From Escherichia phage JN02, in the sequence record MT782071.1: DNA of 64,000 nt; one strand, 5' to 3'. Shown one piece after another: positions 44,312 through 64,000 of this stretch. Under the pieces are notes generated by a model, which saw only the letters and a list, made by a program, of their open reading frames with translations, was not told the origin of the DNA and made no database searches. Within the stretch, counting starts at the first letter, position 1, and the number at the start of each line of letters is the position of its first letter. The translations under genes and the position numbers were made by a program.

Positions 44312-44782
44312 TTAATCATGTTTCCACACCCCATCGGTATTTGACCAAAGTCGCTGATTATCTGATCCTCGCCACAGTTTTTTGGTCGGAAGATTTTTCT
44401 CATACTTCCCATCAATAATAACATCAACATATTTAAGCATTTCTAGTTGTTTAATATCTTCAAATTTATATCCTGTCCACAACCAAATGCTTTTATTGGG
44501 ATAAAGATTTTTTACTGTTTGAACAATGCAATGAACAACATCTCGGTTATCAGGATAGAGCGGGTCTCCTCCAGTTATAGTTAATCCTTCTATATAATCA
44601 TTATTCAAACATTCAATTAATTGTTCCAGTGTTTCACCAGTGAATGGAACGCCATTTCTAGCGTTCCATGTTGATTTATTATAACACCCTTCGCATTTAT
44701 GCAAACAACCTGTAACGAAAAGAACGACCCTGCATCCAGGGCCATTCACAAAATCGCAAGGATAAAATCTATCATAATTCAT
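44312..44782 (-). CDS. nrdG: anaerobic ribonucleotide reductase activating protein (radical SAM)
   Basis: 156 aa; CLHKCEGC cluster motif. Confidence 0.85.
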   Translation of the reverse strand: MNYDRFYPCDFVNGPGCRVVLFVTGCLHKCEGCYNKSTWNARNGVPFTGETLEQLIECLNNDYIEGLTITGGDPLYPDNRDVVHCIVQTVKNLYPNKSIWLWTGYKFEDIKQLEMLKYVDVIIDGKYEKNLPTKKLWRGSDNQRLWSNTDGVWKHD

Positions 44783-46596
44783 TGGTGTTTAACCCTATGC
44801 ATGATTTCTTTATTTTTGCCGAGATTAAATCCGCGTTCGTTCGGATTTCCCAAATAACCACAAGTTCTTCTTATTGTGTTCATCTTTTTAGGATCAGTTT
44901 CTCCACAAATAGAACAAACAAATCCATTTTCGGTAGGAGTCATTTCATGGGTACTTCCACACGTAAAACATTTATCTACTGGCATATTAACACCAAAATA
45001 ATCTAAATGTTGTGCAGCATAATCCCATACAGCCTCAAGACCTTTTAAGTTATTTTTCATATCAGGAAGTTCAACATAAGAAATGTGTCCACCTGTCGCA
45101 ATGAAATGATATGGGGCTTCGCGAGAAATCTTTTCAAACGGAGTAATATTTTCTTCTACTGAAACATGGAAACTATTAGTGTACCAGCCTTTATCAGTAA
45201 CATCCTTTACACTTCCATATTTTTCGGTATCAAGTTTACAGAAGCGATAACAAAGGTTTTCAGCGGGAGTAGAATACAAGCTAAAAGCAAAACCAGTTCT
45301 TTCAGTCCACTGCTTAAGACGAGCATTCATTTTAGTCAAAATTTCCTGTCCAATATCACGACCGACAAGAATATTCAATTCGTGAATTCCAATGTATCCC
45401 AAAGACACTGAACTTCTGCCGTTTTTAAATAACTCAATTATATCGTCATCAGGTTTAAGACGAACCCCGAATGCACCTTCTTGGTAAAGAATAGGAGCAA
45501 CAGTTGCTTTAACACCCTTTAAAGAACTAATTCTACACATCAAGGCTTCAAAACACAAATCCATTCGTTCATTGAACAATTCGGCAAATTTCTGTTCATT
45601 GAATTGTGTTCCAATATAAGAATCTAACGCAATACGAGGAAGATTCAGTGTTACAACGCCAAGATTATTACGTCCATCAAGAATTTCATTACCAGTCGAA
45701 TCTTTCCATACGCTCAAGAAACTACGGCAACCCATTGGAGAAACAGGAATAGATGAACCGGTGATAACTTTATTATTCTTAACTGAAATAATATCAGGAT
45801 ACATCCTTTTGCTTGCACACTCTAGAGCAAGCTGCTTAATATCGTAGTTCGGGTCGTCTTTATAAAGATTGACACCCTCTTCAACGAACATAACAAGTTT
45901 AGGGAAAATAGGAGTTATTCCATCACGACCAAGGCCTTTAATTCGGTTTTTAAGAATTGCCTTCTGAATAATTCGTTCAGTCCAGTCAGTTCCAGTACCA
46001 AATGTAATTGTTACAAAAGGCGTTTGTCCGTTTGAACTAAAGAGAGTATTTACTTCATATTCATAAGCTTGGAATGCGTCATAGACATCTTTTTCTGTTT
46101 TAGATTGGGCATAATTCAACGCATCAGCGATTTGCCATTTTTCTGCATCCTCAATATGTTTTGCATAGGTGCGTTTAACATAAGGAGAAAGTACTTTATC
46201 TACATTAGCAAAAGTCGTTCCGCCGTACTGATGTGAAGCAACCTGCGCAGTAATTTGTGCCATAATTGCAGTAGCAACGCCAATCGATTTAGGCGTTTCA
46301 ATTTGAGCATTACCTAGCTTAAATCCTTTTTCAAGCATTCCTTTTAAATCTACTAAACAACAATTAGTAAATGGAAGAGCAGGGGAATAATCAATATCGT
46401 GGAAATGGATAATTCCGCTTTCATGTGCTTTCATAATAAAAGACGGGACCATATTTTTGGCAATGTGCTTAGACACAATACCAGCCATAAGGTCCCGTTG
46501 AGTTGGAAAAACACGAGAATCTTTATTAGCATTCTCGTTCAAAAGATCTTTATTAGTTTTATGAATTAATCCTTCAATTTCTTTTTCAATTTTCAT
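44779..46596 (-). CDS. nrdD: anaerobic ribonucleoside-triphosphate reductase (glycyl radical enzyme)
   Basis: 605 aa, uninterrupted; C-terminal Zn ribbon CFTCGS...CSICG and glycyl radical motif RRTCGYLG. Confidence 0.92.
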   Translation of the reverse strand: MKIEKEIEGLIHKTNKDLLNENANKDSRVFPTQRDLMAGIVSKHIAKNMVPSFIMKAHESGIIHFHDIDYSPALPFTNCCLVDLKGMLEKGFKLGNAQIETPKSIGVATAIMAQITAQVASHQYGGTTFANVDKVLSPYVKRTYAKHIEDAEKWQIADALNYAQSKTEKDVYDAFQAYEYEVNTLFSSNGQTPFVTITFGTGTDWTERIIQKAILKNRIKGLGRDGITPIFPKLVMFVEEGVNLYKDDPNYDIKQLALECASKRMYPDIISVKNNKVITGSSIPVSPMGCRSFLSVWKDSTGNEILDGRNNLGVVTLNLPRIALDSYIGTQFNEQKFAELFNERMDLCFEALMCRISSLKGVKATVAPILYQEGAFGVRLKPDDDIIELFKNGRSSVSLGYIGIHELNILVGRDIGQEILTKMNARLKQWTERTGFAFSLYSTPAENLCYRFCKLDTEKYGSVKDVTDKGWYTNSFHVSVEENITPFEKISREAPYHFIATGGHISYVELPDMKNNLKGLEAVWDYAAQHLDYFGVNMPVDKCFTCGSTHEMTPTENGFVCSICGETDPKKMNTIRRTCGYLGNPNERGFNLGKNKEIMHRVKHQ

Positions 46597-59464: not shown

Positions 59465-59667
59465 TATTCTTCTACATGTTGTTTACGGCCTTTCTTATCA
59501 ATAAAGGTATATTCAACGAATGTTCCGATGTAGTCTTTATCTACATCATGTGGACTATTAATTGGACATTTGGTACGACAAATGCGTTCCCATTGACGAA
59601 TAATTACTGCCTTATTCTTTGGGTCATATGGATGTGGATAATGTATATTCATAATAATGGTTCCCAA
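59440..59667 (-). CDS. hypothetical small protein
   Basis: 75-aa ORF. Confidence 0.3.
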   Translation of the reverse strand: MGTIIMNIHYPHPYDPKNKAVIIRQWERICRTKCPINSPHDVDKDYIGTFVEYTFIDKKGRKQHVEEYCLKVTWL

Positions 59668-60146
59668 TCAACAATCACAATTTCTAGTTTAGTGGAATAC
59701 GTATCTAAAATCTCTTCGATGACATCCCAGTTTCCACCACCAATACCTGCACCAATTCTTGGCATATAAATTACAGGCTTTGTTATCTTATTCTTTCCGA
59801 ATTCATTTAATTCTATTATACAATTCATTAAAGCAGAGTACTCAAAATTAGGTCCCGGCTCAAACTGCGTATAAAGATTAAAGCAATAAGCTTTATGGGT
59901 CTTAAAATATTTTTCATAAACCGAATAAGTCCCGAGTTTAGACTCGTCTCCGAATTCGGTTTGAAGTTTATCAGCTTCCAGAATTTTTGGATAAGCCTTT
60001 GCTAATTGTCCTGCCACACCGGCGCCCATTGTATGAAAACAATTACACCCATGAGCGATATTATTACCTTTAGAAAACAGGGCGACAATATCGCCCTTGA
60101 TATAGTTTTTAATCACTTGCTGCAAGTCCTCTATTATAAGAGTCAA
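59649..60146 (-). CDS. macro-domain protein (ADP-ribose binding/processing)
   Basis: 165 aa; NIAHGCNCFHTMGAGVAGQL resembles the macro-domain glycine-rich ADP-ribose-binding loop. Confidence 0.5.
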   Translation of the reverse strand: MTLIIEDLQQVIKNYIKGDIVALFSKGNNIAHGCNCFHTMGAGVAGQLAKAYPKILEADKLQTEFGDESKLGTYSVYEKYFKTHKAYCFNLYTQFEPGPNFEYSALMNCIIELNEFGKNKITKPVIYMPRIGAGIGGGNWDVIEEILDTYSTKLEIVIVDWEPLL

Positions 60147-61003: not shown

Positions 61004-61462
61004 CTAGATTTTAATCACTGCTTTAGAAGCTTTTCCTGGTAGTCGTTTACTGTTAATAATAGCCATTCTGCATTGAAGAGTCTTCATTTTGAATGCTGGA
61101 TTTTCGCGACAGACTGTGAGTCCTAACCAAAGATTTCCATCAGTTATTTCTAAACGGCCTGGGCGATATTCGACGCCTTCGACAAAATCTTCATCAACAT
61201 CTGGACGTGCCGGCATTGATAAAAATTCTGCAACTTCTTTAACATGATTTTTTACTTTACGAAATAATTCAAAAACGTAGTTCTCATCTATTTCTCTCTG
61301 GATGGCACGATCTAAGAGATGTTGAGAATACTTGATATGAAAGCCTGGTAGTCCAAGAGACTTTGCAGCATCTTTTATACCGGCATTTATTTTGCGGAAC
61401 TCCGTTTCAAAGATTCGACGGAGTTTATTACGGCGGATAAAAACGTCTGAATTGATAGTCAT
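61004..61462 (-). CDS. regB: RegB site-specific endoribonuclease
   Basis: 152 aa; size and position as T4 RegB. Confidence 0.75.
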   Translation of the reverse strand: MTINSDVFIRRNKLRRIFETEFRKINAGIKDAAKSLGLPGFHIKYSQHLLDRAIQREIDENYVFELFRKVKNHVKEVAEFLSMPARPDVDEDFVEGVEYRPGRLEITDGNLWLGLTVCRENPAFKMKTLQCRMAIINSKRLPGKASKAVIKI

Positions 61463-61470
61463 TTTGATTT

Positions 61471-61519
61471 CTCCTCTAGTTGACAGGTCTATAGTAACAC
61501 AACTAGAGGAGAAGTAAAC
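61471..61519 (-). promoter_or_regulatory. early promoter with inverted repeat (PeSL-like) upstream of regB
   Basis: minus strand GTTTAC, spacer, TACTAT; IR ctcctctagttg/caactagaggag, proximal arm contains the RBS. Confidence 0.5.
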
Positions 61520-61860
61520 TACTCTTTGAAAGGAATTAACTTTTTAACTGCTTTAGATACTTCGTCACGAACCTGGTGGAAGTTCTTGAGCTGTTCAAGG
61601 CGTTGTTCGTAATACGCAATCTCATCTTCTTCAAGACAATCGTCAGCGTCTTCTTTCAGATATGCCTTGTACTCATTAAAGAGGGCCCATAGGCGATTCT
61701 CAAAGTCATCAAGGCTTTGAATTTTCTTGTGCTTCGGAACAAGGCCAAAAGGATTGCTTTCAGTTATGCGTCGAGATGCTTCATAATGAGTTCCAAAGCC
61801 TGATAGGATTTGAGCCATTAGTATTTTTCCTCTGGTTGAAATACCGCACGACAAGCCCAC
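61519..61860 (-). CDS. hypothetical protein
   Basis: 113-aa ORF. Confidence 0.35.
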
Positions 61861-62231
61861 ATACTAGCTTCCTTTAGGCGTTCTTTAGCACAGTTCAATT
61901 GGGACAAAGCCATCAGAGCTTCAGGAGTATTTGCTGATAATGCTTCTTCTGCCAGGGCGTCTAGAATAAGTCCTAAACGAACTTCAGCATCTTTAATAGC
62001 GTTCACTTTACCGATTTTATCATCGGTATGCGGCTTGTAGCCTTTGATGTCTTCAATCGACATAAGGAATTTCCTCATCGGTGGCAAGGTCATATTCGAC
62101 CAATTGGATAGGCTCATTAATACCATATCCGCGTACAGTGATATCAGTTGACGGATATTTTCCAGTAATATCACCCGTTCTAAATGCTTCAATGAATGAT
62201 TGCTCGCCTGAGCAACTAAACCAGGCGGCAA
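61818..62231 (-). CDS. hypothetical protein
   Basis: 137-aa ORF overlaps the upstream gene; probable true start at the internal MSIEDIKG (about 62063). Confidence 0.35.
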
Positions 62232-62277
62232 AACATTTTAAAACATCTTCAGACCCTTCTATAATCAATTTAGCCAT
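62053..62277 (-). CDS. hypothetical acidic protein
   Basis: 74-aa ORF. Confidence 0.35.
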   Translation of the reverse strand: MAKLIIEGSEDVLKCFAAWFSCSGEQSFIEAFRTGDITGKYPSTDITVRGYGINEPIQLVEYDLATDEEIPYVD

Positions 62278-62639
62278 TATAGACTCTCAGTAAAGGTACG
62301 AGCGATAACGTCGCGTTGCTGTTCCGGAGTCAGAGAGTTAAAGCGAACTGCATAACCGGATACACGGATGGTCAGCTGCGGATATTTTTCTGGATGCTTA
62401 ACTGCATCTTCCAGAGTTTCGCGACGCAGAACGTTAACGTTCAGGTGTTGACCGCCTTCAATTTTAACTTTAGGTTGATGTTCAATTTCAATTTCACGGG
62501 CATTCAAACCGTAGAAAATTTCTGGGTCTACAATAGCGTCTTCTTTAAAAGTCTTAGAGACAATAATCCGGGCTTGAGTACCGTCTTCAAAATAAATAGT
62601 GCCTTTATGTGCACCTTCAAGAATTTGATATACTTTCAT
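62277..62639 (-). CDS. glycyl-radical cofactor protein (GrcA/YfiD-like)
   Basis: 120 aa; C-terminal [25 protein letters not shown] is the pyruvate formate-lyase type glycyl radical signature. Confidence 0.6.
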
Positions 62640-62645
62640 ATAACC

Positions 62646-63002
62646 TCAATTAGAAAATAAATTTATCCAAGTTTTTTCTTTAATCAAAAATGGGTCGGAA
62701 TTAAACGCCATTAAACTTTGAGTGATTAATCCCTTAAATGGCCCATCAATAAATTCCATTTTGAAATGCGGAATACTAGTCATTAACCGTGTATTAGGAG
62801 CAGTACAAAGAACATGCTGCCCTGCGAACGGACCTTTAGTCAAACGATATCGTTTAGGTTTAAAATGGTAGATCTCGTAATTTTCTACAAGAGCCCTTTT
62901 ATTGCATACTGGGCTGTTATAACAATACTCAAAAACTTCAATAGTGGTCATCATTGCATTCCAATCACAAAAAATTGAGGACGAGCAATACCGCCGATGC
63001 AA
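62646..63002 (-). CDS. hypothetical protein
   Basis: 118-aa ORF; probable start at the internal MMTTIEV. Confidence 0.3.
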   Translation of the reverse strand: MHRRYCSSSIFCDWNAMMTTIEVFEYCYNSPVCNKRALVENYEIYHFKPKRYRLTKGPFAGQHVLCTAPNTRLMTSIPHFKMEFIDGPFKGLITQSLMAFNSDPFLIKEKTWINLFSN

Positions 63003-63526
63003 TATTTGCTTTTGCAGCAGTACTGTACTGATTTAATATGGACATTGTAAATCTTATCCATATCAGGAGCTTTAATAGGCTCGTCAATTATATACAGAAT
63101 ACGAGAAAGCGTTAATCCACGGAATTTAGAACCTTCATTGCCAATAAAACTACGGACAGAATCAGTAAATAAACGGAATCGAATATCGTCGCTAGAATAA
63201 CGTGAAAATTCTTTTTCAATGTTGCCAGCAGAAATTTTAGCATAAGCTGAAGTATTAGAAAGAACAATAACTGTTCCACCGTCATACAGCCAATTAGCAG
63301 CAAAGTTAGTCACAGCAATTGATTTACCTGATTGTCTGCCACCGTCTAAACGAAGTGTACAGTACTGCTTGAGTACGTCTTCAAATGGTGGGACATAACC
63401 GTTCTTACAAATTTCTTCTACTCTAGCATCAGAATGGTGTGTAAAAGCATTCATCAGGGATAGATAAGGTCCGGTTAAAAATGTTCTCATATTATTTCTC
63501 TTAAGGTTTGGGCCATTCCGTGGCAC
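62951..63526 (-). CDS. hypothetical protein
   Basis: 191-aa ORF; probable start at the internal MRTFLTGP (about 63490). Confidence 0.35.
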   Translation of the reverse strand: MPRNGPNLKRNNMRTFLTGPYLSLMNAFTHHSDARVEEICKNGYVPPFEDVLKQYCTLRLDGGRQSGKSIAVTNFAANWLYDGGTVIVLSNTSAYAKISAGNIEKEFSRYSSDDIRFRLFTDSVRSFIGNEGSKFRGLTLSRILYIIDEPIKAPDMDKIYNVHIKSVQYCCKSKYCIGGIARPQFFVIGMQ

Positions 63527-63662
63527 ATGTTATGTCCTTCGACTCGCTATGTAAACCCATTACCGCATTGCGCTCGACCTTATTACAGGTTGGAAAAGGT
63601 ACATCACTCAGAGGACTCGACGTTCATGAGGAGAGGTTGCGTTTCCCTTTATTAGGCAAGAA

Positions 63663-63992
63663 TTATACTCTAGGCTTTTGAGCTTGTTTGGTATTGGATT
63701 CCCATGCGGCTTTGGTAATTTTGTTAGCGGCATAACCAAAGGCATTAGATAGAACACCTTTAGAGTTGAATACATCCAATCCAATAAGTACACCGGCTGT
63801 GTTAAATTTAGGAGCAAAGTACGCATTAGTTTTAGAAAGAGCTTTTTTCAATTCAGGGTCTTGAACCAAGCCATCAAAAATGCCTTTACTATTTACTTTA
63901 TATGTTACTTTGGGATTTTTACCTTCTTCGATAGCAGCTTTCTGTTCCGCAGATAATGTAACTTCAGTGATAAACTCTTGATATGTTTTCAT
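63663..63992 (-). CDS. internal head protein with capsid-targeting N-terminus
   Basis: 109 aa; N-terminus MKTYQEFITE resembles the T4 internal-protein targeting sequence; Lys/Ala-rich. Confidence 0.55.
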   Translation of the reverse strand: MKTYQEFITEVTLSAEQKAAIEEGKNPKVTYKVNSKGIFDGLVQDPELKKALSKTNAYFAPKFNTAGVLIGLDVFNSKGVLSNAFGYAANKITKAAWESNTKQAQKPRV

Positions 63993-64000
63993 TTTGTTCC

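Follow-up and report, generated by a model that had tools for sequence, protein, structure and literature searches.

The window analysed here, a 64,000-nt stretch of Escherichia phage JN02 (MT782071.1), belongs to a T4-like Mosigvirus, and the 1.8 kb around the gene described below are 96–98% identical to many T4-like Escherichia phages, with O157 typing phage 3 (Mosigvirus) as one relative matching this segment. The ORF listing of the window contains a 120-aa open reading frame with an ATG start at 62277..62639 on the minus strand (ATG at 62637-62639, TAA at 62277-62279), which confirms the 120-aa frame placed there by an earlier sequence-only reading that had left the strand unstated; its assignment as a vs.6 / grcA-like coding sequence draws on this listing, on profile and PDB matches and on synteny. 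As read from the sequence, a GAGG Shine-Dalgarno element lies 4 nt 5’ of the ATG (62644..62647, minus strand) and is overlapped by the TGA stop codon (62646-62648) of the upstream neighbour, a vs.7 homolog at 62646..62954 on the minus strand that was recognised by tblastn with T4 Vs.7 and by the annotation of relatives, and that has no Pfam match. At the other end, the TAA of vs.6 shares one base (TAATG) with the ATG of the downstream vs.5 homolog (62053..62277, minus strand; placed by T4 mapping and by relatives’ annotation). With these tight junctions, and with all of its neighbours on the same strand, the gene is thus packed into a polycistronic unit. A scan of positions 61400-64000 returned eight sigma-70-like sites where 7.0 are expected by chance, and showed no convincing promoter directly upstream.

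Mapping of T4 proteins on the window reproduced the T4 gene order vs.8-vs.7-vs.6-vs.5-vs.4-vs.3-regB. The annotation of Mosigvirus NC_041863 and of T4 NC_000866 puts vs.6 between vs.7 and vs.5, upstream of vs.4, vs.3, regB, vs.1, vs, tk.4 and tk, and the locus in the window is, as in those two records, the tk-denV early region; Pfam searches identified RegB, an Acb2/Tad1-type Vs.4 and a macro-domain Tk.4 among the neighbours. T4 Vs.6 (Y06I; NP_049730.1) has the same length as the ORF product, 120 aa, occupies the same position next to vs.7 and vs.5 and upstream of regB, and is 92.5% identical to it at both the amino acid and the nucleotide level. Nine substitutions separate the two proteins, eight of them N-terminal and the remaining one at residue 73 (arginine in the window, histidine in T4). 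We identify the ORF, by synteny, as the Mosigvirus ortholog of T4 vs.6 (Y06I); in RefSeq the T4 and Mosigvirus orthologs carry the name ‘autonomous glycyl radical cofactor GrcA’. A phage GrcA-like gene is in itself already known, as the T4 vs.6/Y06I family, with biochemistry dating from 2001 and wide annotation, and when T4-like genomes were compared in 2006, vs.6 was entered as a Gly_radical ORF conserved in 6 of 6 genomes (PMC1524935).

Profile and structure matches show that the frame did not arise by chance, and they bear out the assignment of the protein to the stand-alone GrcA/YfiD-like type that the sequence-only reading had made. NCBIfam TIGR04365 (GrcA; InterPro IPR011140) matched residues 18-120 with E = 5.9e-47 and 159.1 bits, which falls below the 170-bit equivalog cut-off, an operational threshold and not a biological feature, because the N-terminal half of the phage protein is shorter and divergent. 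PHROG 1209 (phrog_1209), the profile of the T4 Vs.6 group, was matched along the entire protein (E = 7.4e-62, ORF residues 1-120 on profile positions 1-121), Pfam Gly_radical was matched with E = 2e-18, and E. coli GrcA in PDB 6OWR with E = 2e-42, ORF residues 61-120 being 100% identical to GrcA residues 68-127. The glycyl-radical signature that had been claimed is present as the motif RVSGYAVRF, and it contains Gly95 (codon GGT, 62355..62357, minus strand), which alignment to 6OWR and to the PFL structures 1CM5/1H16 predicts to be the glycyl-radical site: the conserved glycine is kept, aligned to Gly102 of E. coli GrcA and to Gly734 of PFL. Through the identity of residues 61-120 to 6OWR, the ORF product also has the structured C-terminal half equivalent to PFL 693-759; a single-sequence AlphaFold2 model of the ORF had a mean pLDDT of 45 and was too poor for use. 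E. coli GrcA/YfiD (P68066; 6OWR; TIGR04365) is likewise a stand-alone protein, of about 14 kDa, with the same C-terminal 60 residues. The ORF differs from it in being phage-encoded, seven residues shorter and only weakly homologous in the N-terminal half, and in lying in a phage operon, whereas E. coli grcA lies in ung-grcA-eamB.

Homology to PFL C-termini, the absence of which would have counted against the assignment, was found as well, with 49 of 64 residues identical to E. coli PflB 696-759 and E = 3e-26 for 1CM5/1H16. At the same time, PFL models and structures are matched by the ORF over their last 64–66 positions only; in the case of TIGR01255 (PFL), the match covers profile positions 679-744 of 744 and scores 89.6 bits against a cut-off of 994 bits. 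We therefore rejected a full-length glycyl-radical enzyme of the PFL/TdcE type as an identity for the ORF, which shares with PflB the motif round Gly734 but is only 120 aa long, without the ten-stranded barrel and the catalytic pair Cys418/Cys419. Lacking the PFL barrel, the protein is misnamed in those phage records that label it ‘pyruvate formate-lyase’. The short GrcA2 and GrcA3 families (NF008341 and NF038360; 78–80 aa) have the radical domain in common with the ORF (E = 1.4e-27 and 4.9e-31, respectively) but do not have its N-terminal half of about 60 residues, and the ORF scores 95.5 against a cut-off of 145 for the first and 106.6 against 158 for the second.

Taken by homology and by analogy with its characterised relatives, the ORF very probably encodes a phage autonomous glycyl-radical cofactor of the GrcA/YfiD type that would repair O2-cleaved host PFL. 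What we contribute to this reading is the homology, the conserved glycine, the identity of the radical domain to that of host GrcA, the synteny and orthology with T4 vs.6 and the purifying selection described below; for the activation by the PFL activase and for the rescue of PFL after cleavage we rely on the literature on Y06I and YfiD. Only two ‘spare part’ proteins have been validated, YfiD of E. coli and Y06I of T4 (PMC8683613). According to the account of Wagner et al. 2001 given in that paper, PFL activase installs the radical on both YfiD and Y06I, and both restore the activity of O2-cleaved PFL, Y06I having been shown to do so in vitro, so that the rescue of oxygen-damaged PFL by a GrcA-type protein, which the earlier reading had brought up for the E. 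coli homolog, is reported for the T4 ortholog too. Intermolecular transfer of the radical from GrcA Gly102 to PflB Cys419 has been described in vivo (PMC12338860). In YfiD, residues 61-127 adopt the same fold as PFL 693-759, consisting of a beta strand, the Gly loop and a helix, while residues 1-60 are disordered and help binding to cleaved PFL and activation (PMC8683613).

On this basis, the following course of events can be proposed. Translation of vs.6 would take place on a polycistronic phage transcript and in close coupling with vs.7 and vs.5. Once active PflB of the host has been cut by oxygen at Gly734, the phage protein would bind the cleaved enzyme and the host activase PflA would put a radical on Gly95, with the C-terminal 60 residues (beta strand, Gly loop and helix) replacing the lost radical domain of PFL. 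The radical would then pass to Cys419 of PflB, which could again turn pyruvate into acetyl-CoA and formate. No phage PflA was found in the window, so that the mechanism would depend on the host activase and require a host adapted to anaerobic growth. The benefit, as we infer it, would be that the supply of energy and acetyl-CoA is maintained in micro-oxic hosts, for example in the gut, and that formate continues to be made for the phage enzymes NrdD/NrdG. The searchable literature yielded no report of an in vivo phenotype for a phage vs.6 mutant.

The anaerobic ribonucleotide reductase is indeed encoded in the window, with the class III enzyme NrdD at 44779..46596 (minus strand; Pfam NRDD 2.7e-170, Gly_radical 1.2e-25) and its radical-SAM activase NrdG at 44312..44782 (minus strand; Pfam Fer4_12 1.4e-48, Radical_SAM 6.4e-07). 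The sequence-only reading had set the GrcA-like gene alongside NrdD/NrdG; both genes are present, and on the same strand, but they are not adjacent to it. As they lie about 15.7 kb from vs.6, a connection would be a functional one and not one of a shared operon. Most class III RNRs use formate as their reductant, and formate is the product of PFL (PMC4390871); it is through this compound that the two systems may be linked in vivo. NrdD is itself a glycyl-radical enzyme and has its own activase in the window, which raises the question of whether the ORF might be a spare radical domain for phage NrdD and not for host PFL, all the more since PMC1524935 had guessed at a role of vs.6 in nucleotide metabolism from the common Pfam domain. 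Direct comparison of the ORF with the window’s NrdD by BLASTP, however, gave nothing significant (the best E was 2.6, and outside the glycyl region), and the resemblance is instead to the host GrcA domain (60 of 60 residues) and to PflB (49 of 64). The T4 ortholog is, moreover, reported to complement PFL (via PMC8683613), and we consider service to NrdD highly improbable.

The two halves of the protein have different relationships with the host, and we describe the N-terminal half (codons 1-60; 62460..62639, minus strand) before the C-terminal one. Its composition is phage-like, with a GC content of 0.34 and a GC3 of 0.22, and its nucleotide similarity to E. coli grcA is at chance level (27–53% per 30-nt bin). 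At the protein level, it shows 14 identities over the 41 residues that align with E. coli GrcA 27-67, the two sequences being alignable from residue 18–21 on, and the half is seven residues shorter than that of YfiD. Among phages it is better conserved, with amino acid identities of 87% to T4 and 70% to Klebsiella phage pKp20, and in the comparison with T4 we obtained a dN of 0.062, a dS of 0.349 and a dN/dS of about 0.18. Purifying selection acts on vs.6. Given that YfiD's N-terminal half matters for binding and activation, either the gating of repair or the affinity for cleaved PFL could differ in the phage protein.

The same observations might be read in another way, with the phage protein acting as a decoy or regulator whose divergent N-terminal half binds PFL or titrates PflA and so shuts down or re-routes host fermentation. 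The N-terminal half is exactly the part that differs from YfiD, in identity as well as in length, it corresponds to the part that in YfiD governs how cleaved PFL is bound and how efficiently activation proceeds (PMC8683613), and its conservation among phages under purifying selection speaks for a phage-specific function. A pure decoy, on the other hand, would not need a radical domain identical, glycine included, to that of the functional host protein, and the T4 ortholog, at 87% identity in this very half, is reported to restore PFL activity (via PMC8683613). We regard a decoy or regulatory role as unlikely, and repair of PFL by the phage protein as the preferred reading.

The C-terminal half of the protein is encoded by codons 61-120 (62280..62459, minus strand), a stretch that combines the glycyl-radical domain with a block of host-like DNA, as defined by its identity to E. 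coli grcA. Here the GC content rises to 0.49 and GC3 to 0.42, and these 180 nt are the most GC-rich of the whole window (0.494, against a mean of 0.372 with an SD of 0.036). Identity to E. coli grcA is 100% at the amino acid level and 96.1% at the nucleotide level, with seven synonymous and no non-synonymous differences, most of them in the last three codons. When the whole window was compared by megablast with 5,426 complete E. coli genomes, positions 62269-62461 were the sole match, present in every genome; window positions 1-50000 had no match in any of them. The edges of the similarity are abrupt: identity to E. coli is 40–45% just upstream of codon 61 and 22–27% directly past the stop codon. 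T4 vs.6 shares this chimeric build, an AT-rich 5’ half joined to an E. coli-like 3’ half, and its 3’ half is even closer to E. coli grcA at the nucleotide level, with three differences (98.3% identity), although its radical domain matches E. coli GrcA at 59 of 60 residues and that of the window at 60 of 60. The gene is a sharp compositional chimera, phage-like in the 5’ half and E. coli-like in the 3’ half.

A 183-nt block resembling E. coli grcA, with sharp edges and identities of 93–99.5%, was found in about 640 Tequatrovirus and Mosigvirus genomes, and vs.6 forms a local peak of similarity between these two genera. Used as a query against phage records, the E. coli block matched 638 of them at no less than 95% identity, led by phage OES_C-2 with 99.5%, and, after a gap, 300 at 80–90% and 564 at 60–80%. 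Synonymous divergence in the block is small: dS from E. coli is 0.17 for the window and 0.046 for T4, against 0.36 between E. coli and Citrobacter and 1.0 between E. coli and Salmonella over the same block, and against values from 0.6 to saturation between the window and T4 in the flanking phage genes, where nucleotide identity is 55–84%. The identical 60 residues are encoded in 12 other host species among the loci listed, at 84–93% nucleotide identity to E. coli (Citrobacter, 92.8%), with the exception of another Escherichia species, at 98.9%. We further defined nine E. coli-diagnostic sites, all synonymous, at which the E. coli base occurs in no more than 25% of 41 other Enterobacteriaceae; the window and T4 both agree with E. 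coli at 9 of 9 of these, compared with 2 of 9 for Klebsiella phage pKp20. These comparisons point to a recent and specific origin of the 3’ half of Tequatrovirus and Mosigvirus vs.6 in Escherichia grcA.

Two other accounts of the synonymous identity were considered and set aside as unlikely. Convergence through codon optimisation would have to produce it in a block over which E. coli and Salmonella themselves have diverged to a dS of about 1.0, and would have to yield specifically the bases peculiar to E. coli while leaving the 5’ half of the same mRNA at a GC3 of 0.22. Transfer from phage to host is at odds with the E. coli block itself, which is related to its enterobacterial counterparts as vertical descent would predict and is host-like in composition. 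As to how host sequence entered the phage gene, the edges of the block coincide with the domain border and with the stop codon, which are the limits of the prior coding homology, and this fits homologous gene conversion. We tentatively propose, as a reading to which we would give a little short of an even chance, that the radical-domain half was recently overwritten by host grcA through homologous recombination during infection, probably more than once. Alternatively, grcA could have been captured once and the whole gene then spread from phage to phage, and the choice between a single capture and repeated conversion is not proven either way. If conversion is what happened, the phage N-terminal half may evolve separately from the domain it is joined to, and may adjust the manner or the timing of PFL rescue. 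In the literature searched, no paper takes up the question of phage vs.6 being a chimera or of host origin, although absence there is no proof of novelty.

Klebsiella phage pKp20 (Jiaodavirus) has a GC-rich 3’ half, with a GC3 of 0.60, on an orthologous N-terminal half, and both pKp20 and the Slopekvirus Matisse encode the E77L/K81E variant that is typical of GrcA of the Klebsiella/Salmonella type, so that Klebsiella phages have at least one more, independent block of host type. The corresponding host sequence is less closely matched. Among 80 grcA loci listed, with K. pneumoniae not included, the best host match to the pKp20 block was Pseudocitrobacter at about 92%; the 3’ block of Klebsiella sp. 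grcA found no phage record above 95% identity and 17 at 90–95%, and the Salmonella block found three records at 90–95%. Host tracking at the nucleotide level was thus not demonstrated outside E. coli with the Klebsiella sp., Salmonella and Pseudocitrobacter comparisons. The distant copies of the gene in Matisse and JC03 have only about 83% nucleotide identity, yet encode 60 of 60 host-type residues.

By tblastn, homologs were detected in 1,587 of 50,697 phage records, many of them annotated as GrcA, and they range over several Straboviridae genera, T5-like Demerecviridae and some jumbo phages. The proteins of T5-like phages (Demerecviridae, e.g. Spc35), Krischvirus JSE, Karamvirus and Aeromonas phage 44RR2.8t have the same architecture and motif and fall in the same family, with about 50–77% amino acid identity to the ORF, but their 3’ halves are 69–75% identical to E. 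coli grcA at the nucleotide level and contain no near-identical host block. The T5-like copies and those of the other genera also have other genomic surroundings, such as tRNA clusters.

A 3’ half that is 96–99.5% identical to E. coli grcA at the nucleotide level and host-like in composition looks recently acquired, and one could ask whether vs.6 is simply a passenger, a piece of host grcA picked up recently and without a role in the phage. The gene, however, has an intact frame, a Shine-Dalgarno element and coupled neighbours, and its wide distribution across Straboviridae genera and T5-like phages is hard to reconcile with a passenger. None of the seven nucleotide changes that set the 3’ half apart from E. 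coli alters an amino acid, and the full set of host-type residues is retained in Matisse and JC03 at a lower nucleotide identity. In addition, the T4 protein is active in vitro, as related in PMC8683613. A functionless passenger is, in our estimation, very improbable, and we retain repair of host PFL as the very probable function of the gene.

For annotation, these results mean that records in which the gene product is labelled ‘pyruvate formate-lyase’, ‘acetyltransferase’ or ‘hypothetical’ are wrong or uninformative. The route from PFL repair through formate to phage NrdD, which we infer, offers an in vivo logic that may be of interest to specialists. T-even phages carry a spare part for a host fermentation enzyme together with an anaerobic nucleotide reductase of their own, a combination that fits life in the gut, where oxygen fluctuates. 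The host-identical 3’ block of vs.6 is at the same time a clean natural case of host chromosomal sequence entering a virulent phage at a protein-domain border and, if the conversion reading is true, it would mean that a strictly lytic phage of the T4 type maintains the match between an auxiliary protein and the enzyme of its host.

The 193-bp grcA block at 62269-62461, which covers the second half of the GrcA-like gene vs.6 and is near-identical to E. coli grcA DNA, was the sole megablast-level match when window positions 1-64000 were compared with 5,426 complete E. coli genomes; outside this interval, the 64-kb window gave no megablast-level match to those genomes. NrdD, NrdG and Tk are also encoded in the window and have host counterparts, yet their genes lack such a match to E. 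coli DNA.

Among the E. coli-type blocks, the vs.6 allele of the Tequatrovirus Escherichia phage vB_EcoM_Nami (locus L096, 321-683) is the outlier, with 92.9% nucleotide identity to the E. coli sequence. Near the radical site, non-synonymous changes give LTSRVSGY in place of LTIRVSGY, and the allele also reads HLHVNV in place of HLNVNV; weaker selection on the gene or errors in the sequencing could account for these changes.

Other phages carry grcA-like genes in different settings and lengths. In Aeromonas phage 44RR2.8t.2 (L089, 589-957) and the T5-like Salmonella phage Spc35 (L090, 601-969) the gene lies inside or beside the phage tRNA gene cluster rather than in a vs/regB region. Longer variants occur in phage JSE (L091, 592-1008; 138 aa), where a homing endonuclease gene directly follows vs.6, and in Providencia phage PR1 (L092, 322-813), where the protein is annotated as 163 aa from a GTG start and has a long, unrelated N-terminal extension. 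Phage records variously name the vs.6 gene 'pyruvate formate-lyase', '2-ketobutyrate formate-lyase', 'putative acetyltransferase-related protein', 'ribonucleotide reductase subunit', 'endoribonuclease' or 'hypothetical protein'; among the names given, the evidence agrees only with 'autonomous glycyl radical cofactor'.

Two bacterial loci stand out among the matches listed in our search of genome contigs. One contig bears the name of a Firmicute, 'Vagococcus sp. WN89Y', yet has an enterobacterial-type grcA that is 91% identical to that of E. coli; the assembly was probably contaminated or given the wrong label. In Klebsiella sp. WOUb02, grcA sits on a 275-kb replicon labelled as a plasmid.

Two genes downstream of vs.6, the vs.4 homolog (61818-62060, minus strand) matches the Pfam Acb2/Tad1 hairpin domain (E = 4.1e-17), a family of anti-defence cyclic-nucleotide sponges. 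The ORF listing starts vs.4 at a TTG at 62231, giving a product longer than the T4-based protein, while alignment to T4 suggests the shorter 80-aa form. The tk.4 homolog (59649-60116, minus strand) matches a macro domain (PF01661, E = 2.2e-06); T4-like records label tk.4 'phosphatase'.

At the nucleotide level, the window matches T4 very unevenly around the vs.8 homolog (62950-63610): internal stretches of vs.8, such as 63258-63468, are 90-100% identical to T4, and vs.7, vs.5 and vs.3 contain stretches at 30-50%. This alternation of high and low identity is typical T-even mosaicism.
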